A stretch of 64,000 nucleotides of DNA from IMG/VR virus record IMGVR_UViG_3300003155_000137, positions 46,629-110,628 of that record; one strand, 5' to 3'. The notes under the pieces were generated by a model. The model saw only the letters and a program-made list of their open reading frames with translations. It was not told where the DNA came from and ran no database searches. Within the stretch, counting starts at the first letter, position 1; every line of letters begins with the position of its first letter. Below are positions 8,118-48,124 of the stretch, piece by piece. The translations under genes and the position numbers were made by a program. The DNA is from a virus (lineage: Duplodnaviria > Heunggongvirae > Uroviricota > Caudoviricetes).

Positions 8118-8224
8118 CGATGCCGACGTCCGTGGTCTTCTCGTCATGGCCACGGATGGTCGGCGCGACGCCGGACGTGGTGTGCTTCCTCCTTTCGGTC
8201 ATGGGTTCTGACATCGTCCGGTTG

Positions 8225-8298: not shown

Positions 8299-8301
8299 CA
8301 T

Positions 8302-8374: not shown

Positions 8375-8541
8375 CGGTGGCGCGCCAATGTCAATGTTGA
8401 CGGCGTTTCTGTCCACGGGATGGTGTTTAATCATAGTGACGGTTCCGATAACGGAACCGTAGGCACGAAAGGCGATGTCCCGCATGTATTCGGCGGGACG
8501 ATGCACGAATTGCCTATGACGAACACTGAAAGGTATATGAG

Positions 8542-11461: not shown

Positions 11462-11467
11462 TGCCCA

Positions 11468-15323: not shown

Positions 15324-15496
15324 CGCCGACCACCGCCGTTCAGCTCATCAGGAAGTACAGGCCCGATTCCAGCATCAGGCAGATGGGGAAGGGCGGTGCG
15401 TGTCTGGCATACGGTCCTGTTTTGTCAGACACGTTACACTGTTGTCTTGTTGAGGGGTATAATCGTGTTCATGAAATGTATGAAGTGCGGAGCTGA
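15320..15496 (+). pseudogene. Duplicated remnant of the primase 5' end (MTPTTAVQLIRKYRPDSSIRQMG...) that then diverges
   Basis: The ATG overlaps the dnaB stop (ATGA). The first ~22 codons parallel the start of the primase copy at 16403. Confidence 0.35.
15434..15463 (+). promoter_or_regulatory. Candidate promoter for the homing endonuclease: perfect TATAAT at 15458-15463, with TTACAC 18 nt upstream
   Basis: An AT-rich TATAAT hexamer in a GC-rich genome, immediately 5' of the ATG at 15471. Confidence 0.3.
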
Positions 15497-16406
15497 GGTT
15501 TTAGCCGGAGATGCGGTTGCGCATGCAAAGTCTCATGGGATTGCGGTCTGTTGTTTCTGCGGAAGACCGTCAAAGAACTCAAGTGGAGGTTCCCTCCACG
15601 TAAGGCTTTCACATGTATTGTCTGACAAGGAGCGCTCTGAACGCATGCTTCCGACAAGAACCGAAACTGCGAAACGCAAGAAGTCGGAATCGCTAAAGAA
15701 ATCTTGGAGCAATCCGGAAGTTTATAGGAGGCGGTGCGAATCGCAGAATCGACCAGAGACGAGCAGGAAAAAGTCAGAAGCCAACAAGATAAGCCACAAC
15801 ACAAAAGAGTTTAAAGAACGCCAACACAATGCTTTGGTTGAGGCGTTTGCACGCCCAGAAGTTAAAAAGCATATGTCCGAAAGGCAACAGTGCAAGATTG
15901 GTACGCCGGCTTACCTAAAGCGTCAAAGGACACTGAACTCTGAAGAGTACAGGGAAAGGTGCTCGCAGAGATTGAAGAATCGGTGGCTGTTATATAGCGA
16001 CTCCAGAAAATACGAATCTGTTCAGGGCATGATTGAAGCTGGCGGTAGTGGACACAAGCGCACCATTCGGAACAAGAGGGGCTCCTCTGTCAAGTGTGAT
16101 TCCGATATGGAGTATGAGTATTGCAAGTTGCTTATGGCTGACGACGATGTCGTTGACTTTGATAGGTTTGCTGGTGTCATCCACCTGATAGGGATGGATC
16201 GGGTCTATATTCCAGATTTTGTTGTTAATCGACGAAGCGGAGTCAGGGAACTTATAGAGGTTAAGTCAAGCTGGACAGCGAAGTTCCCTACGTTTCCATT
16301 CAAAGTCGAGGCGGCAATCGCTTGGTGCGAAGAGCACTCAATGACTTACAAGATTGTTCGAGAGTCAGATATGTGTGAGTACGAAAGGAGGTTGTTGAGC
16401 CAGTGA
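15471..16406 (+). CDS. Free-standing homing endonuclease (C2H2-like zinc fingers + NUMOD-like repeats + PD-(D/E)xK nuclease), copy 2
   Basis: MKCMKCGAEV start; repeated x-K-K-S-W-x-x-P-E motifs; C-terminal YIPDFVV...IEVK. Confidence 0.6.
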   Translation: MKCMKCGAEVLAGDAVAHAKSHGIAVCCFCGRPSKNSSGGSLHVRLSHVLSDKERSERMLPTRTETAKRKKSESLKKSWSNPEVYRRRCESQNRPETSRKKSEANKISHNTKEFKERQHNALVEAFARPEVKKHMSERQQCKIGTPAYLKRQRTLNSEEYRERCSQRLKNRWLLYSDSRKYESVQGMIEAGGSGHKRTIRNKRGSSVKCDSDMEYEYCKLLMADDDVVDFDRFAGVIHLIGMDRVYIPDFVVNRRSGVRELIEVKSSWTAKFPTFPFKVEAAIAWCEEHSMTYKIVRESDMCEYERRLLSQ

Positions 16407-21592: not shown

Positions 21593-22609
21593 ATGCCAAG
21601 CCGTGGAACAAAGGGGCTTCTTGCGGGCCTGACCCCGGAGATGCTGCTTGACGTCGAGCAGGAGTCCAAGGGGATACCGTTCGAGCCGATGGAGTTCTTC
21701 GAGTCCGACAGGTACTGCGGCATGAACCTGTATCCGATGCAGCGCCTTCTCCTGAAGATCATCAATCTCTACGAGGACTATACCGACCGTGAGAACCAGC
21801 TCATCGACCAATGGACGTCGACGTACTGTGATCGTGGATACCGTGTCGGCATCGTATCCGACGTCCGTGAGCGCATCCGCATTCTCAGGAGGAATGGGTA
21901 CAAGGCGTTCAACCAGATCATCCTGATACTTGGTCGAAGGGCATCCAAGACCACGCTGTGCGGTGCCCAATGGGCGCTTCATGACGCCCAACTCCTTTCC
22001 GAGGGGATTCCGAGGGTTTCCGACACCAGCAAACAGGATGACATCACCTACGGCATAGCGATGGCGACGACCGCCCAGCAGGCGCAGGAGTCGATCTTCG
22101 CAAGCTATTACCGGACGGTGGCGAATTGCCCTTGGTTCTCCAAGTACATCAAGCGAGTAACCCCGTTCGAGATCACCTACCAGACGCTTGAGGACAAGCT
22201 CAAGACGGTGGATATGATCGAGTCCGGAATCAACGTCGAACGCGAGCCGGTGAGCATGGTGTGCCGCCCCATCAGCTCCAACTCCGATTCCATCAGAGGT
22301 CGTCCTGTTGTTGACTTCTGCCTTGGCGAGGATTCCCTTGTCCGCATGTCTGACGGATCGGTAATGCGAATCGCCGACTTGTCCGTCGGAGACCACGTTT
22401 CCGCATTCAATGAGAATAATCCGAGTGTCCCCGAAGACGCAGAGGTGCTGGCGGTACATCATCTCAGGAAGCCGACGAAGCGTATATGGTTCGATGATGG
22501 AACATATATTGACGCGACCGACGAACACAGGTTCGTCAATGGTGATGGCGACTGGGTGGAGGTCAGGGACATGAGGCCCGGAGACACGATAATGGAGGGT
22601 GGTGAGTGA
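21593..22609 (+). CDS. Terminase large subunit N-terminal part (Walker A ATPase) fused to an intein N-terminal half
   Basis: TerL-type Walker A LGRRASKTT; the extein ends ...RPVVDF. Hint-N runs from C at 22319 (CLGEDSLV block A, ATDEH block B) to the stop at 22607-22609. Confidence 0.55.
   Translation: MPSRGTKGLLAGLTPEMLLDVEQESKGIPFEPMEFFESDRYCGMNLYPMQRLLLKIINLYEDYTDRENQLIDQWTSTYCDRGYRVGIVSDVRERIRILRRNGYKAFNQIILILGRRASKTTLCGAQWALHDAQLLSEGIPRVSDTSKQDDITYGIAMATTAQQAQESIFASYYRTVANCPWFSKYIKRVTPFEITYQTLEDKLKTVDMIESGINVEREPVSMVCRPISSNSDSIRGRPVVDFCLGEDSLVRMSDGSVMRIADLSVGDHVSAFNENNPSVPEDAEVLAVHHLRKPTKRIWFDDGTYIDATDEHRFVNGDGDWVEVRDMRPGDTIMEGGE
22319..22606 (+). other. Intein N-terminal half (Hint-N) of a split or fractured intein
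   Basis: Blocks A and B are present and the ORF stops right after Hint-N. Confidence 0.5.
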
Positions 22610-23589
22610 GCGTTTTGTCTGCTACTACGTATCGCGGCGTGAGAGTCGATGAGTCATTGATGCGGTGCCTTGAGTGCGATAGGTCGTTTTCGTCACTGGG
22701 AGGGCTGAGAAGGCATGCCGCCGGGCCTCGGCACAAGAATGGGTCGTCTCAGTGCGATGTGTGCGGAAAGCGATTCGACACACCAACCGGGGCGAGAATG
22801 CACATGCGCGTCCACAACATCGAGCTGAACGAACACGGTGAGCGCTCAGACGGTCCATTCGTGTGTAGCGTTTGCGGTAGAGAGTTCACGTCACTGCGAG
22901 GTCTTGGCAGCCACATCAGATATCATGACCCAAACTATCGCGAGTGGCGTCGTGGACTGCATTTCGGGAGGCAGATGAGCGCAGAGTCGAAAGAAAAGAT
23001 GCGCCAGACTCAGCTCAGGAAGTACAGTGATCCGGAGTTCTCAAAGCGAATGGCGGACTCGAAGAGAACGGTGGCCTCCAGAGCCAGGTACAGCGCCGCC
23101 AGAAGGCGTGTGATTGATGGCTATGATGACCAGCGTCTAATCGACCTGTCAAGGATGGCAATGGGAAATCTCGTGAGAACGATGTCTGGGGATTCCCGTG
23201 GCCATAGGAGCGTCCACCATTCGCAGAAGGCTGGTGACATCCATTGTGATTCCGACCTTGAGCTGAGATTCTGTCGAGACCTGGACGGGTTCGACAACGT
23301 GTTCGCTTATGGCAGATGTGACGACTGTATCGTGTATTCGTTCGATGGCAGGAGACACGTCTACAACCCAGACTTCTGTGTTCAGACCGACGAGGGCACG
23401 GTGATTGTTGAGATCAAGGGTGCAGACTCCGACCAGGTCAGGGCAAAGATGGATGCGGCGGTCGAGTATTATCGCAGATTGGGGCTTGAATATGTCCTCA
23501 TGTTTGAAGGCGATATCGAACGCTGTGAAGAACGTGGAAGATTCATGTATGGAGGAGGTGGTGCAGATGAAGCGGATTGCAAGGATTGA
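22606..23589 (+). CDS. Free-standing homing endonuclease (3 C2H2 fingers + NUMOD-like repeats + PD-(D/E)xK), copy 3, between the intein halves
   Basis: The GTG start overlaps the upstream stop (GTGA) and lies in a different frame from the intein. C2H2 fingers are CLECDRSF..H, CDVCGKRF..H and CSVCGREF..H. The nuclease motif is YNPDFCV...VEIK. Confidence 0.6.
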   Translation: MSVLSATTYRGVRVDESLMRCLECDRSFSSLGGLRRHAAGPRHKNGSSQCDVCGKRFDTPTGARMHMRVHNIELNEHGERSDGPFVCSVCGREFTSLRGLGSHIRYHDPNYREWRRGLHFGRQMSAESKEKMRQTQLRKYSDPEFSKRMADSKRTVASRARYSAARRRVIDGYDDQRLIDLSRMAMGNLVRTMSGDSRGHRSVHHSQKAGDIHCDSDLELRFCRDLDGFDNVFAYGRCDDCIVYSFDGRRHVYNPDFCVQTDEGTVIVEIKGADSDQVRAKMDAAVEYYRRLGLEYVLMFEGDIERCEERGRFMYGGGGADEADCKD

Positions 23590-25132: not shown

Positions 25133-25387
25133 CTTGAGGCTGTTGACGAGCGATGAGAGTTGGATTGTCGCGGGGAAGGTGACCAGCAGGTGTACGTGGT
25201 CTTCCTCGCCGTTGAACTCATCCAAGGTGCATCCGAATTTCTCGCAGACGTTCCGCATGATGGTTTCGCAGTCTTCGAGGATGGGTTGCGTGAATGCTCC
25301 ACGCCGATATTTTGTCACGAACACCAAATGCGCGTGACAATCCCAAACCGCATGCCTTCCCTTACGTATCTGACCATCGTTTTGCAT
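25133..25387 (-). pseudogene. tnpA: IS200/IS605 TnpA (Y1 HUH transposase), 3'-truncated so the catalytic Tyr region is lost
   Basis: MQNDGQIRKGRHAVWDCHAHLVFVTKYRRGAF...EEDHVHLLVTFPATIQLSSLVNSLKGVSSR, then the junction. The HUH motif is HVHLL. Confidence 0.5.
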
Positions 25388-25396
25388 GACACCAAG

Positions 25397-25402
25397 TATA
25401 AT
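25397..25402 (+). promoter_or_regulatory. TATAAT -10 box upstream of tnpB, in the divergent tnpA/tnpB intergenic region
   Basis: AGTATAATGAG, 25 nt before the ATG, with the RBS TGGAGG. Confidence 0.3.
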
Positions 25403-25426
25403 GAGAGATGTCTGGAGGTGAATTGA

Positions 25427-26689
25427 ATGACACTCGATGAAGTCGGTATCGCCGAACGGAACAAACGCATAGGCGAATCCCGCAAGGTCACGAAGCTGCG
25501 GCGTAAACATCAGGTGTGCCGCGCGTTCACCTGCAAAATCGACTACTGGAAGCTCAAAGCCGAACAGCGGGAAGCCCTGTCCCAATTGTTCTTGGATGCG
25601 AAGCGCCTTTACAACGACTGCGTCACGTCCGAGGACGTGTTCTCCTACACACCTGCCCGCGTCGTGAACGTGAGGATGAAGGACGGGAGCTTCAGGCAAA
25701 GGGAACTCGCCCGTATCGGCGTCCAGACCATGCAGGGCGTCATCCAACAGGCCAAGGACAACATTCGCGGACTGTCCAAGCTCAAGGAGAAAGGGTACAA
25801 GGTCGGCGGACTCAAACCGGTCAAATGCTTCAACAGCATCCCGTTGAAGCAACCCGGACGAACCTACCGGCTGAACGGCAACTACATCCATGTCGAGCGC
25901 ATACCCGGCGTGATGCATCTGACCGGGGTGAAGCAGCTCAAGGGCTGGGAGATAGGTCCGGCGAAACTTCTCCGCAAGGCAAGCGGCTACTATGTCGCGT
26001 TCTCCTGCTTCAAGGACAAAATGGAATACGATGAGGGCAAGACCTACAATCCGCCGCCAGCAATACCCATCGGTGGGGTTGACGCCGGGCTGAAGGATGA
26101 AATCACCGAATCCGACGGAACGAAGACCACACGCCGCTATCCGGACACCACCAAACTCCGCTACTGGCAGCGGCGCATGAGCAAACGCGACAGGAACACC
26201 AACAACTGGCGGGAGGCGAACCGCCAATACCGCAAGGAACAGGACAGGCTCAAGGCGCAACGCAAGCACGCCGCCATAGAGGAGGCGCGCCGGCTGACCG
26301 GCAAATACGCGACACTCGTCATCCAAGACGAGCAAATCCACTCATGGAACAAACGCGAAGGATATGCGCGGGGCGGCAGGAAAATCCATGCCGGAATCCT
26401 CGGACGCCTATACGCGACGCTCAAACAACGACCCAATGTCATCGTCTTGGACAAGTGGCAGCCGACGACATCATGGTGCCGGTATTGCGGACGACGAACA
26501 CCATGCCCGGTAAGTCAACGCACATTCACCTGCATGTACTGCGGCGCACAGGAAGACCGCGACCAGCACGCCGCGCTCAACATGCCGGTACTCCAAGAGC
26601 AGCCACTAACCCACGTAGACCTTCGAAAACCACGGGACATCCCCATCGGGCCATACCTCGGTAACGCGCGTACCCGGAACGCCCGCTGA
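25427..26689 (+). CDS. tnpB: TnpB (OrfB; RuvC-like, RNA-guided nuclease family of IS200/IS605)
   Basis: The C-terminus has a zinc finger (CRYCGRRTPCPVSQRTFTCMYCG), a RuvC-III region and the typical K/R-rich linker. Confidence 0.75.
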   Translation: MTLDEVGIAERNKRIGESRKVTKLRRKHQVCRAFTCKIDYWKLKAEQREALSQLFLDAKRLYNDCVTSEDVFSYTPARVVNVRMKDGSFRQRELARIGVQTMQGVIQQAKDNIRGLSKLKEKGYKVGGLKPVKCFNSIPLKQPGRTYRLNGNYIHVERIPGVMHLTGVKQLKGWEIGPAKLLRKASGYYVAFSCFKDKMEYDEGKTYNPPPAIPIGGVDAGLKDEITESDGTKTTRRYPDTTKLRYWQRRMSKRDRNTNNWREANRQYRKEQDRLKAQRKHAAIEEARRLTGKYATLVIQDEQIHSWNKREGYARGGRKIHAGILGRLYATLKQRPNVIVLDKWQPTTSWCRYCGRRTPCPVSQRTFTCMYCGAQEDRDQHAALNMPVLQEQPLTHVDLRKPRDIPIGPYLGNARTRNAR

Positions 26690-26872
26690 CCCCGCAAACA
26701 CAACCCAGAAGCATAATGACGAAACAAAACCAAGACTCCCCTGTGAACAGGGGTTCGGTAGCGGTGCCAAGAACACCCCGCCCATGCATAAGACCAACAG
26801 GCATCCAGTCGGAAGCCTCACGGCAACCGGGCGAAACCCGAGAAGCCCCCGCCCTCGGGCGGAGCGTAGTTC
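26690..26872 (+). ncRNA. Candidate right-end/omega-RNA scaffold region of tnpB
   Basis: Hairpins CCCCTGTGAACAGGGG and CCCGCCCTCGGGCGG lie immediately 3' of tnpB, as expected for an IS605 right end. Confidence 0.25.
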
Positions 26873-27967: not shown

Positions 27968-28243
27968 ATGAAGGGAGTCCTGATGGACAAGAACATTGAT
28001 GATGATGAGATGGCTGTCATCGATAACAGCGACTGGGGAGACTGCGACTCGGAGGTGTCCGACCGCCTCCACACGGTTGAGGCCAACATCGACGCCCTCG
28101 ATTCCACGGTCGACCGCCTCCGTGGCAAGGTCAACGGCCTGAAGCAGAGGGTGGGGACGATGAGCTGGTGCGTCATCGCGCTGTCTGTCGTGCTCCTCGT
28201 CGACAGCGGCTGGGACCTCCTCAGCGCGGCGATGGGGCGGTGA
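27968..28243 (+). CDS. Small coiled-coil protein with a C-terminal transmembrane helix
   Basis: WCVIALSVVLLV at the C-terminus. Confidence 0.3.
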   Translation: MKGVLMDKNIDDDEMAVIDNSDWGDCDSEVSDRLHTVEANIDALDSTVDRLRGKVNGLKQRVGTMSWCVIALSVVLLVDSGWDLLSAAMGR

Positions 28244-28247
28244 CGGC

Positions 28248-28436
28248 ATGGTCGGGCAGGAAGGTGTCAGGTGGAGCATCCAGTGCGACGCCAAAGGTTG
28301 CGGAAGCCACTTCGAGGAGACGTGCTCGTCATGCATGTCGGCCATGCATGATGCCGCAGAAAACGGCTGGCATGTCATGAGGGACGGGACATCGTACTGC
28401 CCGACCCATGCGGATATGGGAAGGAACGAGCTGTGA
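28248..28436 (+). CDS. Cys-rich small protein (62 aa)
   Basis: C..GC...C..C...C. Confidence 0.3.
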   Translation: MVGQEGVRWSIQCDAKGCGSHFEETCSSCMSAMHDAAENGWHVMRDGTSYCPTHADMGRNEL

Positions 28437-29050
28437 TGAAGCGCAGGATCACGGCCATCATCGTATCAGTCGCCGTGTGCGTTCTGGCTTTCGCCGCCGT
28501 GGTGTACGGGACCGGCAAGTCCGATTTGGCATCTAGTGAGCAGGATGCCAGCAGGAACGACGTGGGCCATGATGCCTCCACGTTCCTCGATGACGACGAT
28601 GACAATCTGGCCGAGGACTACCCTCCGACCGACGACCAGGACAGGACGTCCACCACGTATTATCCGAAGAACCACGGCTACTACCCGACGCCGATGCTCA
28701 TGATGGCGTTGTGGGACTGCCAGCCCAACCAGTCCGATCTTGAGGTCACTTCGGACTATGGGTGGGTGGACAGGACGGTCGGCTCGATGAGGCCCTACCA
28801 GGCGACGTTTGCGTGGAGCGATTCCAATCGTGACGTGGCGGAGCGTGTCCTGACGTGCGTGGTGTCCGAGATCGGCCTTTCCGATTCCCTGCCGTCGGTC
28901 GTCGACATGATGGCGTGGGACGGCTCGCAACAGGTGGCCGGAGACAACGCCGGACACATCTATCAGGACGACGATTTCACCGTCTCCTACGGGAACGGCT
29001 CCGACGTCGTCATAGAGGAACTCGTCACTCCGGTGGCGTTTGGAAACTGA
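28433..29050 (+). CDS. Secreted or membrane-anchored protein (N-terminal signal/TM)
   Basis: MMKRRITAIIVSVAVCVLAFAAVVYG. Confidence 0.35.
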   Translation: MMKRRITAIIVSVAVCVLAFAAVVYGTGKSDLASSEQDASRNDVGHDASTFLDDDDDNLAEDYPPTDDQDRTSTTYYPKNHGYYPTPMLMMALWDCQPNQSDLEVTSDYGWVDRTVGSMRPYQATFAWSDSNRDVAERVLTCVVSEIGLSDSLPSVVDMMAWDGSQQVAGDNAGHIYQDDDFTVSYGNGSDVVIEELVTPVAFGN

Positions 29051-29062
29051 AAGGGGCGAAGA

Positions 29063-29845
29063 ATGATCGTCGCACAGAAATTCGGGCCGGTGAACACCCA
29101 TGATGTGAGTTCCACGCTTCGTGGAATGGTGATGTACGCAGCCGGCGACAGGTTCGTGGACGGTGGCACGACGGTGCTGTCCGGTGACGGACTCATGACC
29201 ATGTACCGTCTTTCCGAGGAGATGATGGTCGACAGGGGGCTTGCGTCCAACATCTCCAAGGTCGGCCATGACGACACCGGCATGACTCCGGATGATATCA
29301 GGAACAGGATCACGGAATCGCTTCAGGACGCCCTTTCCGACCTCGGACTTGATGTCTACGCCATACCGGTCGGCCTTGGCGCAGGTCCCGACACCGACGA
29401 TGATGCGATCACGGTCGCATCCAACATCAGGTTGTTGCTCCGTATGCAGGCTGCGATTGAGCTTATGCCGATGATCCCCACCGACTACGTCGAGCAGCGT
29501 CACCTGATGCGTGCGAGCAGGGCTTTGTCCGGAAAGGGAATCGACAAGCTGTCGCGCGAACACGGACTCATCATGCTCATGGACCTCCTCAACCTTGATG
29601 TGTGGTACAGCTCGCTCCCCGAATCCATCACCAATCAGGTCGACTTCGACCTGGTGAACCTTGAGATTCACGCCAAGTACGAACTCGACTTGTCGTCCCG
29701 CCACCGTCTGGCGCGAGCGCTCGCCATGTTCGACCGCAACCCGAACTTCGGTCTCGTCGAGATCGCGTATGAGGAGACGAGCACCACCGTGTCGCCCGGT
29801 GATGAGCTTGAGAGACTGATTGGTGAGGGGATTTACCATGCGTGA
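29063..29845 (+). CDS. Hypothetical protein
   Basis: ORF. Confidence 0.3.
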   Translation: MIVAQKFGPVNTHDVSSTLRGMVMYAAGDRFVDGGTTVLSGDGLMTMYRLSEEMMVDRGLASNISKVGHDDTGMTPDDIRNRITESLQDALSDLGLDVYAIPVGLGAGPDTDDDAITVASNIRLLLRMQAAIELMPMIPTDYVEQRHLMRASRALSGKGIDKLSREHGLIMLMDLLNLDVWYSSLPESITNQVDFDLVNLEIHAKYELDLSSRHRLARALAMFDRNPNFGLVEIAYEETSTTVSPGDELERLIGEGIYHA

Positions 29846-30176
29846 CTTCACAATCGGCGATGTGTCAGGGACGACGATGATTGATTTACCCCCTATAGTG
29901 CAGATGGTTGATTCCGCGATTCCCGCATCTTCAAGGAAACCACAGCACTCCATATCCCAATCCACCGTGGAGGAGTGCGAGTCCATCGACGGCGGAACCG
30001 TGTCGCTCATTCTTGAGACCAATATCGGCGACGACCGCATCATCGACGTCGTCTGGCGCATCGTCCGTGGCAACGGCATCGAGGTGTTCGGCTGCAACGA
30101 CCTGCCGACGACGATATCGGTGTGGAACGCGCTGGTCAGCCCGGACAATCAGCTCTACGACGACCCCAATCTGTAG
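29838..30176 (+). CDS. Hypothetical protein
   Basis: ORF. Confidence 0.25.
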   Translation: MRDFTIGDVSGTTMIDLPPIVQMVDSAIPASSRKPQHSISQSTVEECESIDGGTVSLILETNIGDDRIIDVVWRIVRGNGIEVFGCNDLPTTISVWNALVSPDNQLYDDPNL

Positions 30177-30243
30177 GAAACGCCGGGCGATTTTGCCGCC
30201 GAAGCGATACGCGGTAGAGTAGCCGCATGACAATGAAAGGAAG

Positions 30244-30924
30244 GTGACCGCCATGCCCACCTATTCGTTCGATGAGCTGTCGGATGAGGCCAAGGCGTAT
30301 GCGTTGGAGGATTACCGCAGGGAATCCGAATCGTATCTTGATTCGCTTGAGGCCATCGACAGGGAGTCCATGTCCGATTTCAATGAGCTTCTGGGAGAGC
30401 TGTACTGCCACACCACTAAGTCGGTGGAGCCGAGGATTGACGGCACGATGACGGTCACGCCAACGTTGCGCATGGACGATGAGCTGTGGGAGCAGAACGC
30501 GGTCGAGCATGACGCCATTGGTGGACACATCCCTGATGTCCCCGTCCTGCGTAATTCCAGATACTACGACGGAACCGCGAAGCAGGCCCTCATCACCACA
30601 TGGAACGGCCAGGTTCCCGAACTCCAGAGGATCGTCGACTCCATCAATGCCGAGGCCGACGCCATCGCCGCCGACGTATCCGGCGGTCATCCAGACGACT
30701 TCGACTTCAACGACTCCGAGGTCGCAACGGATGCCCTTGAAGCCAACACCGACGACCTCAAGGACGAACTCTACTCAAGATGGGAGGAGGCGGCGACCCA
30801 AGCCCTGAGCGCCGCAGTCGCATCACTCGGCGAGGTTCTTCTCGATTACGCCTCGGACGACAACGTCATTTGGCACATCAACCAGGACGGCATCATGTTC
30901 TCGGAGGACGGCACTATGGAATGA
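30244..30924 (+). CDS. Hypothetical strongly acidic protein
   Basis: ORF with a high D/E content. Confidence 0.3.
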   Translation: MTAMPTYSFDELSDEAKAYALEDYRRESESYLDSLEAIDRESMSDFNELLGELYCHTTKSVEPRIDGTMTVTPTLRMDDELWEQNAVEHDAIGGHIPDVPVLRNSRYYDGTAKQALITTWNGQVPELQRIVDSINAEADAIAADVSGGHPDDFDFNDSEVATDALEANTDDLKDELYSRWEEAATQALSAAVASLGEVLLDYASDDNVIWHINQDGIMFSEDGTME

Positions 30925-31077
30925 CGTGTTTTTCGTTGACCTCACTTGTGTTTTCCCGGATTTTGGTGTAAACTTGTATATGTAGCGAAAACCAATGCGG
31001 CGCAACGGTTCACGTATTATGACTAGTGGACAGGAGGATTGATATAATATGGACTTCGTAAACGGTGTCGGAGGTGA

Positions 31078-31530
31078 TTGGCGATGAGTCTGAAGCCCAA
31101 TCGATACTGGGTTGACGTGCTTGACGAGGGGGTGTGGGGGACCGTCGCCGCGACATCCGATGAATCGTCCGCCTACGACGAGTTCATTGTCCAGGACGTC
31201 GGAAGGATGAGGGTGACGAGGGTGAGGCACCGTTCATGGGCGGCGCTCGTCTACGGGATTATCTTCCTCGTCTGCGACATCGCCATAGCCGTCATCATCG
31301 CGGACACGCTGATGGACGGCGTGGTGTACGGGTTCATGGCGGCGAGGCTCTCGATGGTCGGTCTCATGCTGATGATTCTTCTCGTGTTCATGGCGATCAC
31401 GGTGTTCCTGCTCAAGCCCGACATCATCGACTCGACGGAATATCTCGGCCCGCCGATCACAAGGCCGAGGGCTGGCGGAACCGACGATGCCGACATCGAT
31501 GATTTCATCAATGACAAGGAGAATGACTGA
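31078..31530 (+). CDS. NfeD-like membrane protein (putative partner of the SPFH protein)
   Basis: A beta-rich soluble segment (VWGTVAATS...GRMRVTRV) is followed by two TM helices. It sits immediately upstream of, and is translationally coupled to, the SPFH gene. Confidence 0.35.
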   Translation: MAMSLKPNRYWVDVLDEGVWGTVAATSDESSAYDEFIVQDVGRMRVTRVRHRSWAALVYGIIFLVCDIAIAVIIADTLMDGVVYGFMAARLSMVGLMLMILLVFMAITVFLLKPDIIDSTEYLGPPITRPRAGGTDDADIDDFINDKEND

Positions 31531-31532
31531 CA

Positions 31533-32477
31533 ATGGGATTCATAGTGGCTTTGGTGTTCGGGGTCATCGGACTTGCGGTCGCCGCAGCCGGATTCGGCGT
31601 ATATCTGGCGCGTAAGCGCAAGGCCGTGTATTCCGACGAGCTGGTCTGGCCGATGGTCTTCGGCGTCATCGGCTCGGCGGTTCTTGGAATCGCGGCCATC
31701 GCAACGGCCTTCATGTCCTTTTACACCCAGGACGCCGGTGAGGTCGTCGTCATCCGTGGTCTCGGAGGCAACATCGTCGGTTCCACCGATGAGGCCGGAT
31801 TCCATGCCAAGGCCCCGCAGAACTCAACCATATCGTACAGTACGAGGAACAACGTCGTGTCGTTCATCGACAACGGCGAGTCCTACGTCAAGGACGGCTC
31901 GGTCAATGGAACCCATGTCACGGTCAACGACAATGGCGGTGCCTCGGCCGACGTGGACATCCAGGTGAACTATTCGCTCCGTCCCGACTATGCCGAGCAG
32001 CTCTACGAGAACTATGGGACGCAGGAGTCGTTCGTCCAGTCGGTCGTCGCGGTGGACGTGAGAAGCGTCACCCGTGGGTGCGCCGGCCAGTTCTCCACAA
32101 TCGAGATCCTCACCAACAGGCAGGATCTCTCCGACTCCATCGAGAAGACCCTGTCGGACATGTGGGAGGGTTATGGGCTGAACGTGGAGCAGGTGTCCAT
32201 CCAGGAGGTGAAGTATCCGGAATCCATAACCAACGCCTACGCGGATGCGCAGAAGGCCGAGGCCGAACGCCAGACGGCGCTCAACAAGCAGGAGACCGCG
32301 AAGGTGGAGGCCGAGACCAAGAAGATCGAGGCCCAGGGTACTGCGGACGCGAACAAGGTGCTGAACGATTCCCTGACGGATCGCGTACTCACACAGAAGT
32401 ACATCGATGCGCTCAAGGGTGCCAAGCAGCTTGTGGTCGTCCCCGATGGATCGCAGCCCATCATCAAGACCGAATAA
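31533..32477 (+). CDS. SPFH/band-7 (stomatin/prohibitin/HflKC-like) protein with an N-terminal TM anchor
   Basis: An N-terminal TM helix, an SPFH core (VVIRGLGG...VNYSL...), and a C-terminal coiled coil rich in A/E/K (QKAEAERQTALNKQETAKVEAETKKIEAQG). Confidence 0.65.
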   Translation: MGFIVALVFGVIGLAVAAAGFGVYLARKRKAVYSDELVWPMVFGVIGSAVLGIAAIATAFMSFYTQDAGEVVVIRGLGGNIVGSTDEAGFHAKAPQNSTISYSTRNNVVSFIDNGESYVKDGSVNGTHVTVNDNGGASADVDIQVNYSLRPDYAEQLYENYGTQESFVQSVVAVDVRSVTRGCAGQFSTIEILTNRQDLSDSIEKTLSDMWEGYGLNVEQVSIQEVKYPESITNAYADAQKAEAERQTALNKQETAKVEAETKKIEAQGTADANKVLNDSLTDRVLTQKYIDALKGAKQLVVVPDGSQPIIKTE

Positions 32478-32490
32478 TCGAACAGCGAAC

Positions 32491-32512
32491 GGCCCCATCA
32501 CCATGTGGGGCC
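32491..32512 (+). terminator. Hairpin GGCCCCA-N8-TGGGGCC after the SPFH gene
   Basis: Inverted repeat read directly. Confidence 0.4.
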
Positions 32513-32742
32513 GCATATCCACGGCGGAACCGATGAACCCGTAAAAGGGAACGTCGGCACGGCAACCGGTGTACGGCGGACGGGAGTCTTACTCCTTTCT
32601 CTAGTATCAAAGAGCAACATCAATGTCACTGCGTCCGATACATCACCGGCGTGCATGGTTCGAGTCCATGAGTTGTTTTTCGGCGGGGTACCGCGATGCT
32701 TGTCGTCGTGGGTGAACGCCGATTGTATTCCACTAAATATGA

Positions 32743-32748
32743 TATAAT
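32743..32748 (+). promoter_or_regulatory. TATAAT -10 box upstream of the second tnpB
   Basis: GATATAATTGG, 24 nt before the ATG at 32772, with the RBS TGGAGG. Confidence 0.3.
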
Positions 32749-32771
32749 TGGTTTGTTATTGGAGGTTTGTC

Positions 32772-33992
32772 ATGGCTGAGCTGACGTTGACGATGCGCGC
32801 CCGTCTGCTGCCCACACCGGAGCAGCAGACGCGGCTCGCCGCATTGTGTTCGACGTTCGCCGACTGCTGCAACGACGTGGCCGACCACATCGACAAAACC
32901 CGGACGCTCAGCCAGAAGAAAATCAACAAGGCCATCTACCACCAGTTGCGCGAAGCGCACGGGCTGCTCGCCCAGATGACCCAATCCGCGATACGCCGGG
33001 TCATCGCCAACTACAAGGCCATCCACACGCGCATCAACAATCTCCGCGAGGAAAACAAGAACGGTGAGACGCGGGGAGGCAAGAAGCGGAAGATACCCGA
33101 GTATTACGGGATAAAGCCCCAGTACGCGCCCAACGGGTGCGACCTGCTGTGGAACCGCGACTACTCATACTCCCAACGGACCGAAATGTTCAGCCTCCCC
33201 GTCATGGACGGGCGCATCAAGGTGAAGGCCGAATGGAAAAACGTCCCCGACCAATACCGGCTGGGAAGGTTCGGCACAGCCCGTCTCATCCGCAGCCGCG
33301 ATAAATGGTATCTGCTCATCCCCGTTACCATCCAGACGCCGGACGTGACGGAACACCCCAAGACCATCGTCGGCGTGGACTTGGGCATACGATTCCTCGC
33401 CACCTCCTATGACGGCGAACACACCACATTCCACGACGGGAAGGAGGTGAAACACCGTCGCGGCAGATACAAGACTCTTCGCAAGGAATTGCAGCAGCGG
33501 GGCACGCGCAGCGCGAGGAAACGTCTCAAAGCCATCGGTAGTCGAGAAAACCGTTGGATGACCGATGTCAACCATCAGGTGTCTAAGGCACTCGTCAACC
33601 AGTACGGCAGGGACACGCTCTTCGCGCTCGAAGACCTCGAAGGAATCCGCAACGCCACCGAAAGGGTGAGGATGCGGCAGCGCTACGTGCAGGTGTCTTG
33701 GGCGTTCAGCCAGCTCCGTTCGTTCATCGGATACAAGGCGGCACGCAACGGTCAGGCCACGGTCGCGGTCGATCCCGCGTACACCAGCCAGACCTGCCCA
33801 CGATGCGGGCACGTGTCCGCAGGAAACAGGGACAAGCGGAACCACATCTTCATCTGCCGCAACTGCGGCTACCGGTCGAACGACGACCGGATAGGCGCAA
33901 TGAACCTGCGTCACAAAGGCTACGACCTGATCGTGATGCAGTACGACGCCAACATGATTGACGTCGCAGGGGTGCAGCCAACCATCCCGTGA
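32772..33992 (+). CDS. tnpB: TnpB (second copy, solo; no tnpA detected)
   Basis: The C-terminal CPRCGH...CRNCGY zinc finger and RuvC-like motifs are present. It is only distantly related to copy 1. Confidence 0.7.
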   Translation: MAELTLTMRARLLPTPEQQTRLAALCSTFADCCNDVADHIDKTRTLSQKKINKAIYHQLREAHGLLAQMTQSAIRRVIANYKAIHTRINNLREENKNGETRGGKKRKIPEYYGIKPQYAPNGCDLLWNRDYSYSQRTEMFSLPVMDGRIKVKAEWKNVPDQYRLGRFGTARLIRSRDKWYLLIPVTIQTPDVTEHPKTIVGVDLGIRFLATSYDGEHTTFHDGKEVKHRRGRYKTLRKELQQRGTRSARKRLKAIGSRENRWMTDVNHQVSKALVNQYGRDTLFALEDLEGIRNATERVRMRQRYVQVSWAFSQLRSFIGYKAARNGQATVAVDPAYTSQTCPRCGHVSAGNRDKRNHIFICRNCGYRSNDDRIGAMNLRHKGYDLIVMQYDANMIDVAGVQPTIP

Positions 33993-34170
33993 TGTTCCGT
34001 CACCACACCCCGTACCGGGGATGCGGAATCAAAGGCGGGAGAGACCATCAACATGATGCCTCGCTTTCACCGCCGGACAGGGACAAGCCGTGACGCTCGT
34101 CGTCACGGTAGTTGACGCTCCGCCACGACCGAAACACCCAATCCGCATGAGGAAACGAAAGGAGCGACGG
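33993..34170 (+). ncRNA. Candidate right-end/omega-RNA region of the second tnpB
   Basis: A CCCCGTACCGGGG hairpin lies directly after the stop. The ORFs called here are Arg-rich and look spurious. Confidence 0.2.
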
Positions 34171-34485
34171 AAGGATGTCAGACGGAATCCACGAGGTCGG
34201 CGACGTATCGGACGAGACCGCTTGCAGGAGCCTGTGGTCCGGCTCGGAACCGGACATCATCACCGAATCCACGAGGTCATCGGTGAACGGTCAGCCCCTG
34301 AACGAATACAGGGCGATGGATGTCGATGGACTCTCCTCCACCGCATCGTATGAATCCAGGGCCGAGGCCGTCCGTGCATGGAACATGATGATGAGGAGGC
34401 TGTGCATGATGTGGTTGTCAATGGCGAGGCACGACAGGACCGATGCCATGGAGGACGCCCAGCTTTCACTGATGGGGCTTTCAAG

Positions 34486-34770
34486 ATGACGCCGCCCAAG
34501 GAGTCGAAGTCAAGGACGAGGTCGCTGATCCGCCTTCTCCTGTCATCATATAGAGGAGCCCACACGGCGTCATGGATATGGAACACCTTGAGGGACAAGG
34601 GCCACAACGTGTCTCCGAGCGGGGTCAGAAGCAGATTGGCCGAGATGGTCAGGGACGGCGAGGTCGATGTGGCCGACAGGTTCGGGACCACGGAGTCCGG
34701 CAACAGGTGCATGAGGTACAGGCTGCACAGGGAGTCCAGGGTTCTGGACCGCAACGGGAATCCGATGTAA
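34486..34770 (+). CDS. Small winged-helix-like DNA-binding protein
   Basis: RSLIRLLLSSYRGAHTASWIWNTL...GVRSRLAEMVRDGEV. Confidence 0.3.
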   Translation: MTPPKESKSRTRSLIRLLLSSYRGAHTASWIWNTLRDKGHNVSPSGVRSRLAEMVRDGEVDVADRFGTTESGNRCMRYRLHRESRVLDRNGNPM

Positions 34771-34865
34771 CATCGGAAGAAAACGACATTATTATATCAT
34801 TTCTGACGGGAGAATGTAAAGTGGTTTCCGAAGAGTCGATCTATGATGGTTCGGCATACACGGAG

Positions 34866-35084
34866 ATGTGGCTGAGAAGATGCACGAGATGCCCCAAGTG
34901 CGGGTCGACACCCGTGTACCACGTGGACAGCCACGACACGAGGACATTGAAGTGCACCCATCCCATCCATGTCTATGGGGCCGAACCGATCGAGGCAACG
35001 GGGGATTCGTTGCAGCGGGTCGTGTCGGAGTGGAACAGGGAGTGCGGCTCCGGATGGACGATGACCGACAGGGACGGTGAATGA
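34866..35084 (+). CDS. Zinc-ribbon protein
   Basis: CTRCPKCG...C.H. Confidence 0.3.
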   Translation: MWLRRCTRCPKCGSTPVYHVDSHDTRTLKCTHPIHVYGAEPIEATGDSLQRVVSEWNRECGSGWTMTDRDGE

Positions 35085-35521
35085 TGGGATATCCTTATGG
35101 ATCCGAACCGTACCCTACGTGGGAAATGCTGGAGCGTGACGACGCATTCCGCTCGACGCTCTACGAATCCCACACGAGGCATGTGGATGCGTTGATGCAT
35201 GACAAGGCGGAGTCGTTCAGGTCGAGGCCGATCACCGTCAACATCAACGCGCAGGTCGGCGACCATGACGGGCAGTGGCTGGACGAGCTTCTGGAGTCGC
35301 TGCACTCGCCGTCGGAGGAGATGCTTGAGCCGACGGACAGGGAGAACGCGGAGGCGTGGGGGATGGCGCTCGCCGATGCGATCGTCGCATCCGGCATCGA
35401 TGGTGCCGGCATAGACAGGCTCTTCAACGACCTGACCGCGATGATCGAGGACCATGTGGTCGGGGACATCAACCGCAGGGCAAGGGAATCGAACCCCATG
35501 AAGGATTCGGGAAAGGAATGA
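35081..35521 (+). CDS. Hypothetical acidic protein
   Basis: ORF. Confidence 0.3.
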   Translation: MMGYPYGSEPYPTWEMLERDDAFRSTLYESHTRHVDALMHDKAESFRSRPITVNINAQVGDHDGQWLDELLESLHSPSEEMLEPTDRENAEAWGMALADAIVASGIDGAGIDRLFNDLTAMIEDHVVGDINRRARESNPMKDSGKE

Positions 35522-35525
35522 ACAC

Positions 35526-36353
35526 ATGGCAGGTCTGACCATCGATGTGAACACCGGGGAGATCAGGTTCTTCGACAAGACCGACCTCGGAAGCGCCGTC
35601 GACGTGAGCATCCACATCGAGGATGACGTGTGGAGGCGCATCTACGACAGGCTCGGGGAAAGGTTCGCCGGGACCGCCCCGGACTCCCCGGAGGAAGCGC
35701 CCGACGATCCCACCGCCGAGGTCGTCGAGGACGGCGGCACCGACCCGGAAGTGGATCAGCACGCGGCGAGAAGAACCGTCCGCATGGACGTGAACGCCGA
35801 CATGCACGGTGGAAGGCGTGACTGGATGAAGGACGGCGAGGACTGGCATTGCATCAGGTTCACCGACATCCAGCCCGATGACGTGGTCGAGGCGTTCCTG
35901 ATGGACGGAACGTCGGTGTATGGCAGGGTGAGGTTCGTCCCCGGCAACGGATGGACCATCACGGACGAGGATGGCGACACCCACACCGTCATCTCCATGC
36001 CCGACAGGAAGAGCCACCCCACGGTGCGTGAGCCGTTCGTCTCGGCGTCCGCATACACGCTGAGGGATGACAAGGACCTCCTGAGGGACACGTCCGCCGT
36101 GCTCGTCCCCGGATTCGATGACGGCCCCGAGCCGTGCCCGGTGTGCGGGGATAGGCCGACGCTGAAGGACGACCTCTATGTGTGCCGGAACGACGGCTTC
36201 AGGTCGGACTCCATCCCCGACGACCTCCCCGACGGCGTCATCGGAGGCCCCGCCACCCACGTATGGAACGGGACGGTGAGGCGCTTCAACGAGTATGTCC
36301 GGAGGCGTGACGAGAGGAGCGACGACCCCGGAGAGTCCGAGGCCCTGCTCTGA
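35526..36353 (+). CDS. Hypothetical protein with a C-terminal CPVCG...C zinc ribbon
   Basis: ORF. Confidence 0.3.
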   Translation: MAGLTIDVNTGEIRFFDKTDLGSAVDVSIHIEDDVWRRIYDRLGERFAGTAPDSPEEAPDDPTAEVVEDGGTDPEVDQHAARRTVRMDVNADMHGGRRDWMKDGEDWHCIRFTDIQPDDVVEAFLMDGTSVYGRVRFVPGNGWTITDEDGDTHTVISMPDRKSHPTVREPFVSASAYTLRDDKDLLRDTSAVLVPGFDDGPEPCPVCGDRPTLKDDLYVCRNDGFRSDSIPDDLPDGVIGGPATHVWNGTVRRFNEYVRRRDERSDDPGESEALL

Positions 36354-45850: not shown

Positions 45851-48124
45851 ATGATTCGCGTCGTGGTTTTGGGAGGACGAGGGATGCCGAAGAGCGTAGC
45901 CGATTGGTCGAAGCAGATATGCACGGCTCTTAACAATATCGACCCGCAGGTCAGCACGGAGATAGGCGATCCGATCAGGAAGGTCATCGACGCTGTTGCC
46001 TCGGTGGCGAGCGCCGTGGAGATGAACGCCCAGGTCAACCAGAGTTTCTTCGATCTCGACTCCAAGTCGGGTGCCGACCTCGACGCCATAGCGTCATGGC
46101 TTGGATTCGGAAGACGTGATGGCATCAAGGCGGTCGGTGAGGTGAGGTTCTTCGTCGACGAGCCGGCCATCCTGAACATACAGATACCGGCGGGGACGCA
46201 GGTGACCGACGGCAACGTCGTGTTCGAGACGCTCTCGTCCACCGTCCTGGCGCAGTTCGACACGGAGGTCTTCGCAAGGATACAATGCACCACCGTGGGA
46301 ACGTCCGGCAACGTCAACGCCTACGCCATCAATCAGGTGGTCACCACCGTGTCCAACGTCGAGCTCCATGTTGAGAACCGCAACAACACGGTCAACGGCG
46401 TGGACGTCGAATCGGACGCCGAGCTGAGACAGAGAATCAGACAGACATTCCTACGCAACGTGGCGGGAACCGAGGATGCCTATCGCGGGGTCTCGGACAA
46501 GGTGAACGGGACCAACAGGGTGAACGTCATCGGCCCGATCGAGCGCTGGGAGGAGCAGATGGAGGTCGTCGACCTCTCGGAGGACCTCGGAGGCGGGGTC
46601 GGGTTCCAGTCGATGATCCCATGCTCGAAGTACACATGGCCGCGCCAGACCTATCTCGTGAGGGAGCCCGGAACGGACAACGAGATGGTCTACAGGGAGG
46701 GCACCGACTACGTGGTGGACAGTTCCTACGACGAGTCGCATCCGGTCGTGAAGATCCTGATGACCGACGACATGCTGAACCTCGACGGGCTATCAGGCCC
46801 CCAGCTCGACAAGGTCGGGGAGACGCTCGGCCTCCCGAGATACGGCGGGACCCCGGCATACGGAACGGTGTCGTTCGGGTTCGATATAGCGCAGAAGTCC
46901 AACTACACGATCAAGAAGGGCGCTCGCGTCCGCACGCCGTCGGGGGACATCCTGGTGACCCAGCACGACACCACCATCTATTCCGGCTCGCTGGGAAGCT
47001 CCGACGTCGACGTGCTGTCCCAGGAGTGCAAGCCGATATCGGTTCCGAATGGCACCCATCTCACCTACATCGACAGGACCGGGTTCGACGTCATGGTCGT
47101 CGAGGCGATCACCGGCGGCGAGCGCGCGTGGGACGACGCGACCTACCGCGGGAAGATCAGGGAGCGCTTCTACGAGCGCGTCTCCATATCGCCAGGGGAC
47201 TTCCTGTTCTTCAAGCACGAGTACTGCTCGAACGTCAGCAGGAACGAACCTGCGGAGAACCCTCCGAAGGTCAACAAGGTGGACGTGTTCGTCGACGGCA
47301 TCGACGTGCAGGAGATACGCGAGGTGTCGCAGATACAGTCGGTCACGCTGAACGACGATCCTGACGACATGTGGTACGTCGGGAACTTCTACTACGAGGA
47401 CGGCACCCACCCGGTCAAGGGAACGAAGATGGAGGTCCTCGGGTACAACCCGGTCGTATCCATCCCCGAGTCGGTCAACATCAACGGAGGGACCTACTAC
47501 CTCGGCAAGCACTACAGGCTGGTGAGGAACCAGACGCTCACCGCCGGAAGCACGAGGGAGATAGCGGGGATGGCGTGGGTTCCGGGGCAGGAGATGCCGT
47601 CGGATGGCAGCTTCACCGAGATGAGATATGACTACAACAGGACGGTCATGGTCACGGATGCACTACTGGACACGAACAGGCAGATATGCACCGACGTGCT
47701 GTGCCACGAGGCGCACAGGGTCGGCCTCACCATCAACGTGATAGTCCAGTCGGTTCTGGGTCAGTCGGATTCCACGCTGCTGGAGTCCATCAACCACCAC
47801 CTCGACGACTGGGCCAAGAGCACCCCGTTCGGCCAGTGGATTCAGAGATCCGACCTGGAGATGACGATTCGTCAGGCCATAGGTGTCGACGCATGCCGCA
47901 TAGCAACCCCGGACGACACATGGAGGACCATCAACCTCGGTGACGACGTAGGCCAGAAGGTCAAAAGTGGAATCCAGACGCACGAGACGTTCCGCCACTA
48001 TCTGGACGAGCAGCACGACGAGGACTTCAGGCTGTGGGACTCCATGCTTCCGACCATCTACAAGGTGAACATCGTGAGGACGGCCGCCAACACCTACGAC
48101 CCATCGTATCGACCAGAGCCGTGA
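45851..48124 (+). CDS. Baseplate-J-like / tail fibre-associated protein
   Basis: The N-terminal region (GDPIRKVIDAVASVASAV...DLDAIASWLGFGRRDGIKAVGEVRF) resembles the Baseplate_J family. Confidence 0.35.
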   Translation: MIRVVVLGGRGMPKSVADWSKQICTALNNIDPQVSTEIGDPIRKVIDAVASVASAVEMNAQVNQSFFDLDSKSGADLDAIASWLGFGRRDGIKAVGEVRFFVDEPAILNIQIPAGTQVTDGNVVFETLSSTVLAQFDTEVFARIQCTTVGTSGNVNAYAINQVVTTVSNVELHVENRNNTVNGVDVESDAELRQRIRQTFLRNVAGTEDAYRGVSDKVNGTNRVNVIGPIERWEEQMEVVDLSEDLGGGVGFQSMIPCSKYTWPRQTYLVREPGTDNEMVYREGTDYVVDSSYDESHPVVKILMTDDMLNLDGLSGPQLDKVGETLGLPRYGGTPAYGTVSFGFDIAQKSNYTIKKGARVRTPSGDILVTQHDTTIYSGSLGSSDVDVLSQECKPISVPNGTHLTYIDRTGFDVMVVEAITGGERAWDDATYRGKIRERFYERVSISPGDFLFFKHEYCSNVSRNEPAENPPKVNKVDVFVDGIDVQEIREVSQIQSVTLNDDPDDMWYVGNFYYEDGTHPVKGTKMEVLGYNPVVSIPESVNINGGTYYLGKHYRLVRNQTLTAGSTREIAGMAWVPGQEMPSDGSFTEMRYDYNRTVMVTDALLDTNRQICTDVLCHEAHRVGLTINVIVQSVLGQSDSTLLESINHHLDDWAKSTPFGQWIQRSDLEMTIRQAIGVDACRIATPDDTWRTINLGDDVGQKVKSGIQTHETFRHYLDEQHDEDFRLWDSMLPTIYKVNIVRTAANTYDPSYRPEP

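Follow-up and report, generated by a model that had tools for sequence, protein, structure and literature searches.

When a gene for a small membrane protein, a gene for an SPFH-domain protein and a gene for a TnpB nuclease follow one another in a phage genome, the question arises whether they came as one piece or only came to lie side by side. Such a row of genes is found at positions 31078-33992 of a stretch of viral DNA of 64,000 nt (positions 46,629 to 110,628 of the IMG/VR record IMGVR_UViG_3300003155_000137; the whole stretch is referred to here as the window), and the original prediction had read it as an NfeD-like/SPFH operon joined to a solo tnpB in a single accessory cassette. We favour a different reading, in which the region is made up of three independent layers of different age, the membrane protein, the SPFH gene and the TnpB element, and we would put the probability of this at roughly 0.7. 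What had been observed was confirmed in part and its interpretation was supported in part: the SPFH and TnpB genes are real, and both are of known kinds. The first two genes do lie on the same strand and are 2 nt apart, the first ending at 31530 and the second starting with an ATG at 31533, and together with tnpB they lie inside a phage genome, as the window holds phage replication, baseplate, tail, endolysin and tRNA genes.

The separate histories of the three layers emerge from comparison with relatives. Eight close loci from other metagenomes (L059-L066) are 91-96% identical at the nucleotide level and have the gene order 223 aa, membrane protein, SPFH, 104 aa, 94 aa, 87 aa; L059-L065 run past the SPFH gene, L066 stops inside it, and in none of the seven that span the site does a TnpB gene follow SPFH. 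Copies of the TnpB gene are found at other sites in sibling phages, and on this comparison the TnpB element is an independent, recent insertion at strain level and not part of a cassette. More distant relatives (L161/L162, with a GC content of 47%, and L163, with a GC content of 64%) bear two remote homologues of the membrane protein; their order is g29063, g30244, membrane protein, g34175 and on to dUTPase, the membrane gene directly adjoining the g34175 homologue, and no SPFH gene was found in them by tblastn. Because the membrane protein is kept at the same position in L161-L163 without SPFH, it is on this evidence a backbone gene. The SPFH gene, present in L059-L066 and absent from L161-L163, appears by the same comparison to be accessory at the family level; together with a spacer of ~250 nt it would have been gained by the window's sub-lineage or lost elsewhere, and would now be fixed. 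The GC content at third codon positions (GC3) of SPFH is 0.81, which equals that of the backbone genes, and therefore any gain is old. The presence in some relatives and absence from others that would mark an accessory gene or moron is seen for SPFH, not for the membrane gene, which is backbone; the comparison of synteny that had been proposed as a check found SPFH missing in distant relatives, and TnpB missing from the seven close loci that span the site.

The reading in which an NfeD-like gene and an SPFH gene form a classical cellular operon that, with the solo tnpB, makes up one mobile accessory cassette is very improbable, and has been largely refuted already by these results. It can draw on the tight spacing and common promoter of the first two genes, on an SPFH gene that is real and missing from distant relatives, and on the TnpB gene that adjoins them. 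Besides the absence of TnpB from the seven loci spanning the site and its presence at other sites, it is the nature of the first gene that speaks against it. This gene (31084 to 31530, + strand) encodes a small membrane protein of 148 aa; the reading frame first proposed for it stands, with the start moved from the TTG at 31078, which would give 150 aa, to the likelier ATG at 31084, which agrees with metagenome gene calls. Its ribosome-binding site (RBS) is GGAGG at 31069-31073. The protein has an N-terminal tail of ~50 aa that closes in the strongly basic RMRVTRVRHRSW, two transmembrane (TM) helices and an acidic C-terminal tail of ~38 residues. The beta-rich soluble domain that had been ascribed to it is not seen in its AlphaFold2 (AF2) model, which has helices at 50-82 and 86-110 only and no strands, at a pLDDT of 49 and from a shallow alignment.

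Nor could the name NfeD-like be upheld, as no NfeD domain was found in the 148-aa protein in Pfam at E<=0.1, neither NfeD nor any other family was matched in NCBIfam, and a profile that combined the protein with five close homologues matched no NfeD chain among PDB sequences at E<=10, in a library that includes the E. coli QmcA-YbbJ SPFH-NfeD complex 8z5g. One match of this profile, at E=1.3, was judged to be due to chance. The only likeness to NfeD proteins (PF01957; YbbJ, YuaF, PH0471/PH1510) is that of a small membrane protein gene directly 5' of an SPFH gene. NfeD proteins have a soluble OB-fold beta-barrel C-terminal to the TM helices, whereas the 148-aa protein has its soluble and TM parts in the reversed order, with no OB-fold predicted in its low-confidence model. 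Furthermore NfeD is paired with SPFH in a conserved manner, whereas no SPFH gene stands beside the homologues of the 148-aa protein in L161/L162 and L163; each of the two families is also met without the other. With no profile match, a soluble part N-terminal to the TM helices, no OB-fold and no conserved linkage to SPFH, an NfeD identity was rejected.

The family to which the 148-aa protein belongs would seem to be tiny and confined to phages: five clusters of 83-93% identity were found among 5.8 billion proteins, and a HMMER profile search of 1.84 billion representatives added 2 further remote homologues, giving 3 representatives in all. The ratio of non-synonymous to synonymous substitution rates (dN/dS) is 0.50-0.62 for this protein, which these comparisons portray as a fast-evolving part of the conserved backbone of the phage family, without demonstrable tie to SPFH.

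The second gene (31533 to 32477, + strand), with AAGGAG 10 nt before its ATG, encodes a membrane protein of 314 aa of the SPFH/Band_7 type (prohibitin/stomatin/HflK-C-like). Here the original prediction of an SPFH protein with a TM anchor and a coiled coil was borne out, as the Pfam search that it had proposed gave a match to PF01145 at E=4.5e-27 and 95.7 bits, well above the cut-off of 23.6, over profile positions 5-175 of 176. The protein also matches phrog_200 at 1.4e-44 over almost its whole length, and its top sequence matches in the PDB are prohibitin-2 (1.9e-8) and stomatin. The AF2 model (pLDDT 89.8, from an alignment of 36 homologues) has two TM helices at 2-29 and 38-61, an SPFH domain at 63-227, a coiled-coil helix of ~50 residues at 230-280 and a further helix at 283-296. 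With Foldseek the model matched prohibitin over its full length at 3e-15, followed by stomatin, erlin, HflK/C-FtsH, QmcA-YbbJ and flotillin, with E values from 3e-15 to 1e-8 and a probability of 1.0. Model and fold matches together give the architecture of an SPFH protein, with an N-terminal membrane anchor, an alpha/beta SPFH domain and a long coiled-coil helix. With a dN/dS of 0.10-0.16 the gene is under strong purifying selection.

The cellular proteins whose fold is matched over the full length (prohibitin PHB1/2, stomatin, erlin, HflK/C-FtsH, QmcA-YbbJ and flotillin) are only 13-23% identical in sequence and form rings or cages that enclose a patch of membrane; from the monomer model the same principle would be expected here. 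The phage protein differs from them by its anchor, a hairpin of two TM helices, and beside its gene there is none for NfeD, FtsH or a further SPFH paralogue. Two N-terminal TM segments, an uncharged N-terminus of 1-2 residues and a TM1-TM2 loop rich in lysine and arginine (K/R) are found in 112 of 120 SPFH homologues, with a mean of 5.1 K/R in the loop. Given this loop, the positive-inside rule would put the SPFH domain on the outside of the cytoplasmic membrane. The SPFH domain of HflK/C lies on the extracytoplasmic side, which agrees with this predicted topology, and it might be asked whether the phage protein acts in the manner of HflK/C, caging the host FtsH and modulating the turnover of phage or host membrane proteins. 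The fold does match HflK/C-FtsH complexes (7wi3, 9cz2), and the hflK model TIGR01933 gives a weak match to the sequence; the match, however, is of 36.9 bits, far under the cut-off of 159.4, the locus has one SPFH gene and not an HflK/HflC pair, the best matches in both sequence and fold are prohibitin and stomatin, and the anchor has two TM helices and not one. We regard such a role as doubtful.

SPFH/NfeD pairs had been described as foreign to standard phage modules, but SPFH genes as such are nothing unusual in phages. Apart from the match to PHROG 200, a tblastn search with the SPFH protein found 263 cultured phage records, including Staphylococcus Kayvirus with its MbpS protein, Arthrobacter, Streptomyces, Bacillus and Caulobacter phages and haloarchaeal viruses, and phage SPFH genes are listed in several genome papers without a function being given, having first been noted in T4-like phages in 2006 (PMC1524935). 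At least 735 homologues were found at E<1e-10. Fifty-six IMG/VR loci with SPFH homologues range from 37 to 67% in GC content, and across these very different phages the identity of the SPFH protein is 46-61%. Its neighbours vary by lineage: among the open reading frames (ORFs) upstream and downstream of SPFH in the 56 loci, many of which look spurious in high-GC DNA when called naively, there is clustering by lineage and no conserved partner, and no homologue of the 148-aa protein is present in any of the 56.

The same architecture is seen in the "band-7-like membrane protein" of actinobacteriophages, a member of PHROG 200. Identity is 37% for gp75 of Arthrobacter phage Richie, over 98% of the protein, and 34% for gp168 of Arthrobacter phage Atuin; in both phages the SPFH gene is solitary, being surrounded by replication or glycosyltransferase genes and not preceded by a gene for a small membrane protein. 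Identity to the SPFH protein of any cultured phage is below 40%, and the closest relatives, at 50-61%, are on uncultured gut phage contigs and among "prohibitin family" proteins of Bifidobacterium.

Patchy distribution of this kind, which includes probable Bifidobacterium prophages, could suggest that SPFH is an early superinfection-exclusion or anti-defence factor whose extracytoplasmic cage blocks the entry of rival phage DNA or interferes with a membrane-bound host defence. The host-type promoter, the location among small non-structural genes and the predicted outward-facing SPFH domain would all suit such a role. Against it stand the results of a search with PADLOC models at E<=0.01, which matched neither SPFH nor the 148-aa protein nor the neighbouring genes, and the literature, where no published case of SPFH-mediated exclusion was found; furthermore the high conservation of the protein over so wide a range of GC content fits a housekeeping-like function better than that of an arms-race gene. 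This explanation is accordingly quite unlikely in our view, though superinfection exclusion or membrane remodelling, the roles first suggested, may still be involved. On the same PADLOC result, negative for SPFH, the 148-aa protein and their neighbours, a known defence system was ruled out.

The nearest parallel to the arrangement of the first two genes is found in Kayvirus, the group of Staphylococcus phage K, myoviruses of ~140 kb with a Gram-positive host in which there is likewise a small TM gene tightly 5' of SPFH and near tRNA genes (PMC7150955). It is possible, though unlikely, that the 148-aa protein and SPFH are a two-component module like MbpV-MbpS, in which the cage corrals or times a holin-like pore-former and so controls lysis or the export of a wall-active enzyme. 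Kayvirus mbpV (102 aa, with a TM segment and holin-like) overlaps mbpS by 1 nt and lies beside holA-lysK-tgl and the tRNA module (PMC7150955), and the authors of that work suggest, as speculation only, that MbpS might help to export Tgl (PMC7150955). MbpS is a distant homologue of the SPFH protein (23% identity, E=1e-6), the two TM helices and charged tails of the 148-aa protein would recall class II holins, and the two genes here are closely spaced and would be co-transcribed. The 148-aa protein, however, has no sequence similarity to MbpV in a direct comparison, and MbpS has one TM segment where the SPFH protein here has two. Whilst the mbpV-mbpS pair lies between the holin-endolysin genes and tgl, the pair in the window is 21 kb from the endolysin gene at 52612-53889. 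Further points against such a module are that the membrane protein is older than SPFH at this position, or exists without it, that a partner of this kind is lacking upstream of most SPFH genes in phages, and that the differing dN/dS of the two genes argues against tight co-evolution.

Expression of the pair would start from a sigma-70-like promoter with an extended -10 element (31019 to 31048, + strand; ATGACT-18 nt-TATAAT with TG at 31040-31041), recognised by its match to the consensus at 10 of 12 positions. The pattern TGNTATAAT at this site is found 3 times in the window, where 0.2 occurrences would be expected, and the site precedes the backbone membrane gene and not SPFH directly. Beginning 13 nt past the SPFH stop there is a stable hairpin (32490 to 32513, + strand; CGGCCCCAT/GTGGGGCCG, 9 bp with a 6-nt loop), which is supported by folds and invariant in 4 sequences. 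This had been described as a clean terminator, but it has no U-tract and the terminator scan makes no call there. The same scan does score as terminator-like the junction at 32654-32680, where a T-arm hairpin stands directly before the T-rich left end of the inserted element (CATGGTTCGAGTCCATG AGTTGTTTTT), and the insertion may have made a terminator between SPFH and tnpB.

Between the SPFH gene and the next backbone gene lies a conserved spacer with tRNA-like features. Its 5' part runs from 32523 to 32670 (+ strand), as defined by alignment with, and folds of, relatives in which it is uninterrupted, and its 3' acceptor-like strand is at 34118-34125, the first 8 nt of the flank on the other side of the insertion, which cuts just past the T-arm and so parts the T-arm from the acceptor-like strand. 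Uninterrupted spacers are 241-259 nt with the first ~110 nt invariant, and end in GCATGGTTCGA(G/C)TCCATGCTCCGCCA, that is, a textbook T-arm and 3' acceptor-like strand; the canonical T-arm is GCATGGTTCGAGTCCATGC, and the tRNA-like stretch in L059 is at 11440-11590. The predicted fold combines an acceptor-like stem of 6 bp and a hairpin with a long stem, variable at its centre, and the T-arm, the acceptor-like 3' strand pairing with GGCGGA ~150 nt 5' of it in both minimum free energy (MFE) and consensus folds (z = -2.3). RNAalifold on 4 sequences gives essentially no covariation, because the stems are invariant. No match was given by ARAGORN at default settings or by the Rfam tRNA and tmRNA models on the spacers of L059, L063 and L064. 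When ARAGORN was relaxed and introns allowed, the anticodons disagreed between sequences, and a tmRNA tag frame sought by eye was likewise dropped, UAAUAA being present in some relatives only and deleted in others. An exact pattern of T-arm and acceptor was found 0 times in IMG/VR and 0 times in JGI metagenomes, so that neither a host tRNA sharing that 3' half nor further sequences to test for covariation were obtained. On its predicted fold the spacer may be a tRNA-like element or a remnant of one.

Proximity to tRNA genes is seen with SPFH genes elsewhere. A tRNA gene or array ends at most 1.5 kb 5' of the SPFH start in 26 of the 56 viral contigs, with none of the 56 having one within 1.5 kb on the 3' side; the distance is within 500 nt in 17 loci and 13-98 nt in some lineages. 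The loci concerned are L003, L026-L037, L039-L044, L046, L048, L052 and L055-L058, with SPFH at ~10000 in most. In four or more other phage lineages, which differ in GC content, no protein gene stands between a tRNA array and SPFH, and Kayvirus mbpS also adjoins a tRNA module. It would be a long shot to suppose that the spacer is a functional tRNA-like RNA and that SPFH travels with, or is expressed or processed from, tRNA-type transcripts; were that true, the locus would be a tRNA-punctuated accessory module with a TnpB element homing into its RNA gene.

The third layer is an insertion sequence (IS) of the tnpA-less IS200/IS605 type (IS1341-like), ~1,447 bp long, which alignment to empty sites places at 32671 to 34117 (+/-1 nt, + strand). 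The left flank closes ...GGTTCGAGTCCATG and the right flank restarts CTCCGCCACGACC; the insertion is without target duplication and is polymorphic among genomes. Its left end (32671-32771, + strand) contains the RBS GGAGG at 32761-32765 and, 24 nt before the tnpB start, a TATAAT-type site, TGATATAAT at 32740-32748, a pattern with 3 occurrences in the window where 0.2 would be expected, so that tnpB does have a site of its own as had been noted. The tnpB gene itself (32772 to 33992, + strand; 406 aa) was found to be present as predicted, following SPFH, with a corrected and likelier start at ATG 32772 that agrees with metagenome gene calls. Its product is a TnpB RNA-guided nuclease with Pfam matches to Cas12f1-like_TNB (4.7e-21) and OrfB_IS605 (9e-12), PF07282 and PF01385 both being above cut-off, and a match to the NCBIfam model guided_TnpB NF040570 of 200.1 bits (cut-off 100). 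Its motifs align with those of Cas12f 9nzq (GVDLG/GVDMG, LEDLEGI/MEDLTGI, NDD/NAD and the zinc ribbon CPRCG...CRNCG), as well as with those of solved TnpB structures, and the nuclease is apparently intact, with a RuvC D-E-D triad and a CxxC...CxxC zinc ribbon. The right end (33993-34117, + strand) closes in ...CACGGTAGTTGAC(G).

Directly 5' of the left end is TCCATG (32665 to 32670, + strand), a putative target-adjacent motif (TAM) that is common to all three independent insertion sites and is present in the empty site of relatives. Copies of TnpB 93-94% identical to that in the window lie at two other sites in related phages, one, inverted, between dUTPase and a gene of 74 aa and the other 5' of a DUF7297 protein, which corresponds to window 56838-58055. 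All copies have the ends (G)AGTTGTTTT...GGTAGTTGAC and the 5' flank TCCAT(G), with unrelated 3' flanks, and such conserved ends with a constant flank are what would be expected of an IS200/IS605-type element with a TAM-like motif. The 3' end of tnpB and the right end (33880 to 34117, + strand) presumably form the scaffold of an omega-RNA, with the terminal hairpin CCGTGACGCTCGTCGTCACGG at 34088-34108; this region has an MFE of -97.6 kcal/mol (z = -2.6) and is near-invariant in 5 copies, and no Rfam family matched the right-end region. A pattern scan of IMG/VR with the right end gave 0 matches, the other copies having been reached through the protein. The 3' flank CTCCGCCACGACCGAAACAC (34118 to 34137, + strand) is the equivalent of a guide by position. 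The element resembles other tnpA-less IS1341-type elements in its compact size, conserved ends, constant 5' motif and structured 3' end, and differs in that the spacer it targets is tRNA-like and belongs to a phage. The presence of TnpB genes in phages is already on record.

The window has a second, unrelated TnpB element at 25133-26867 (gene 25427-26689, 420 aa, phrog_506 at 3.6e-30), which has only weak local similarity to the first and is present in L064-L066 and absent from L059-L063; its bounds are ambiguous within 12 nt because ACTAGAAACGCC is found at both the left flank and the right end. Locus L063 has yet another TnpB, of 410 aa, at a third site.

The genome in which these layers are found is that of a myovirus-type gut phage of ~137 kb with a GC content of 58-60%. 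Phage-type proteins were recognised in the window by PHROG matches, among them a PolIII-alpha-like DNA polymerase (493-5244), a UvsX-like recombinase, a DnaB helicase, a baseplate wedge protein (45851-48124), an endolysin with LysM repeats (52612-53889), a virion protein (56838-58055, the counterpart of the DUF7297 protein of related phages) and a tail sheath (61579-62928); three tRNAs are at 8045-8375, coding ORFs are nearly all on the + strand and third-position GC is high. An identical SPFH protein was found on a chicken-gut metagenome contig of 137,478 bp (ERZ922862 k127_79594), and sibling phages of 132-139 kb are numerous in gut metagenomes. Window positions 28000-36000 gave no match by megablast against the INPHARED phages, and therefore there is no close cultured relative there. 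The host is probably Bifidobacterium, going by the naming of shared proteins: TnpB (32772-33992) is identical to RefSeq WP_288923489.1, labelled "uncultured Bifidobacterium sp.", and the cluster of SPFH proteins at 50% identity includes a "prohibitin family protein" of B. breve and B. longum. A scan of species genomes with TnpB gave identities of 37-59%, the top match, at 59%, being Bifidobacterium callitrichidarum, which suggests the same host and is not decisive.

Other insertions appear to be present in the window. Within the polymerase ORF at 493-5244 (1583 aa), residues ~605-790 match PHROGs of HNH endonucleases and of "head closure", a stretch that may be an intein or an inserted endonuclease, and two free-standing HNH-like ORFs lie at 15396-16406 and 60098-61060, one of them with low GC3. 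Segment 22317-23682 (1.37 kb) is absent from all seven related loci covering the position (L059-L061, L063-L065) and contains an ORF at 22606-23589 of 327 aa whose GC3 is lower and which weakly matches a restriction-endonuclease family and zinc fingers; this segment is probably a further insertion of mobile or homing type.

Several points weigh against the reading of three independent layers or against the roles proposed for them below. The 148-aa protein and SPFH would be co-expressed, because of their 2-nt spacing and shared promoter, and there may be a functional partnership between them that was acquired secondarily, by analogy with the overlapping mbpV-mbpS of Kayvirus. Gain and loss of SPFH are indistinguishable without a phage phylogeny. 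The outward-facing topology of the SPFH domain would follow from the positive-inside rule, and no characterised phage SPFH protein was found in the literature. As for the TnpB element, no TnpA was seen in it and there is no room for tnpA, and therefore its transposition would need a helper, whilst for the omega-RNA and for homing the argument is by extension from published work on TnpB.

With these points in mind we still favour three independent layers, and the working of each can be proposed as follows. The membrane gene and SPFH would probably be transcribed by the host RNA polymerase from the extended -10 promoter. The SPFH protein, anchored by its TM hairpin, most likely assembles into a multimeric cage like prohibitin, stomatin and HflK/C, as its modelled fold suggests, and with its domain outside the cytoplasmic membrane this cage would probably fence off a patch of membrane or a membrane protein. 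It would not act as an NfeD-dependent system. The guess to which we commit is that SPFH insulates the membrane, a membrane protease or a pore-former during infection, and that the envelope and the timing of lysis are thereby stabilised.

Independently of this, a selfish tnpA-less TnpB element would have landed 3' of TCCAT(G) in the tRNA-like spacer. According to the published model of TnpB, the omega-RNA uses the sequence flanking the element as its guide. By analogy the omega-RNA here would carry the flank from 34118 onward, and TnpB would cut sibling genomes with the empty site, TCCAT(G) followed directly by CTCCGCC..., the element then being copied in by recombination; the predicted targets are TCCAT(G)-CTCCGCCACGACCG and TCCAT(G)+CTCCGCCACGACCGAAAC. 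Omega-RNA, TAM and cleavage are all assigned to this element by likeness to known omega-RNA-guided homing.

The locus has consequences for how such regions are read, as genes are not made into a cassette by having a TnpB gene beside them, and to name any small membrane gene 5' of SPFH "NfeD" is an unsafe annotation. With three mapped sites, a TCCAT(G) flank and natural empty sites, the TnpB element offers a convenient case for the study of RNA-guided homing between co-infecting phages. The natural SPFH-plus and SPFH-minus relatives described here, with otherwise identical synteny, constitute a test system for the function of SPFH in phages.

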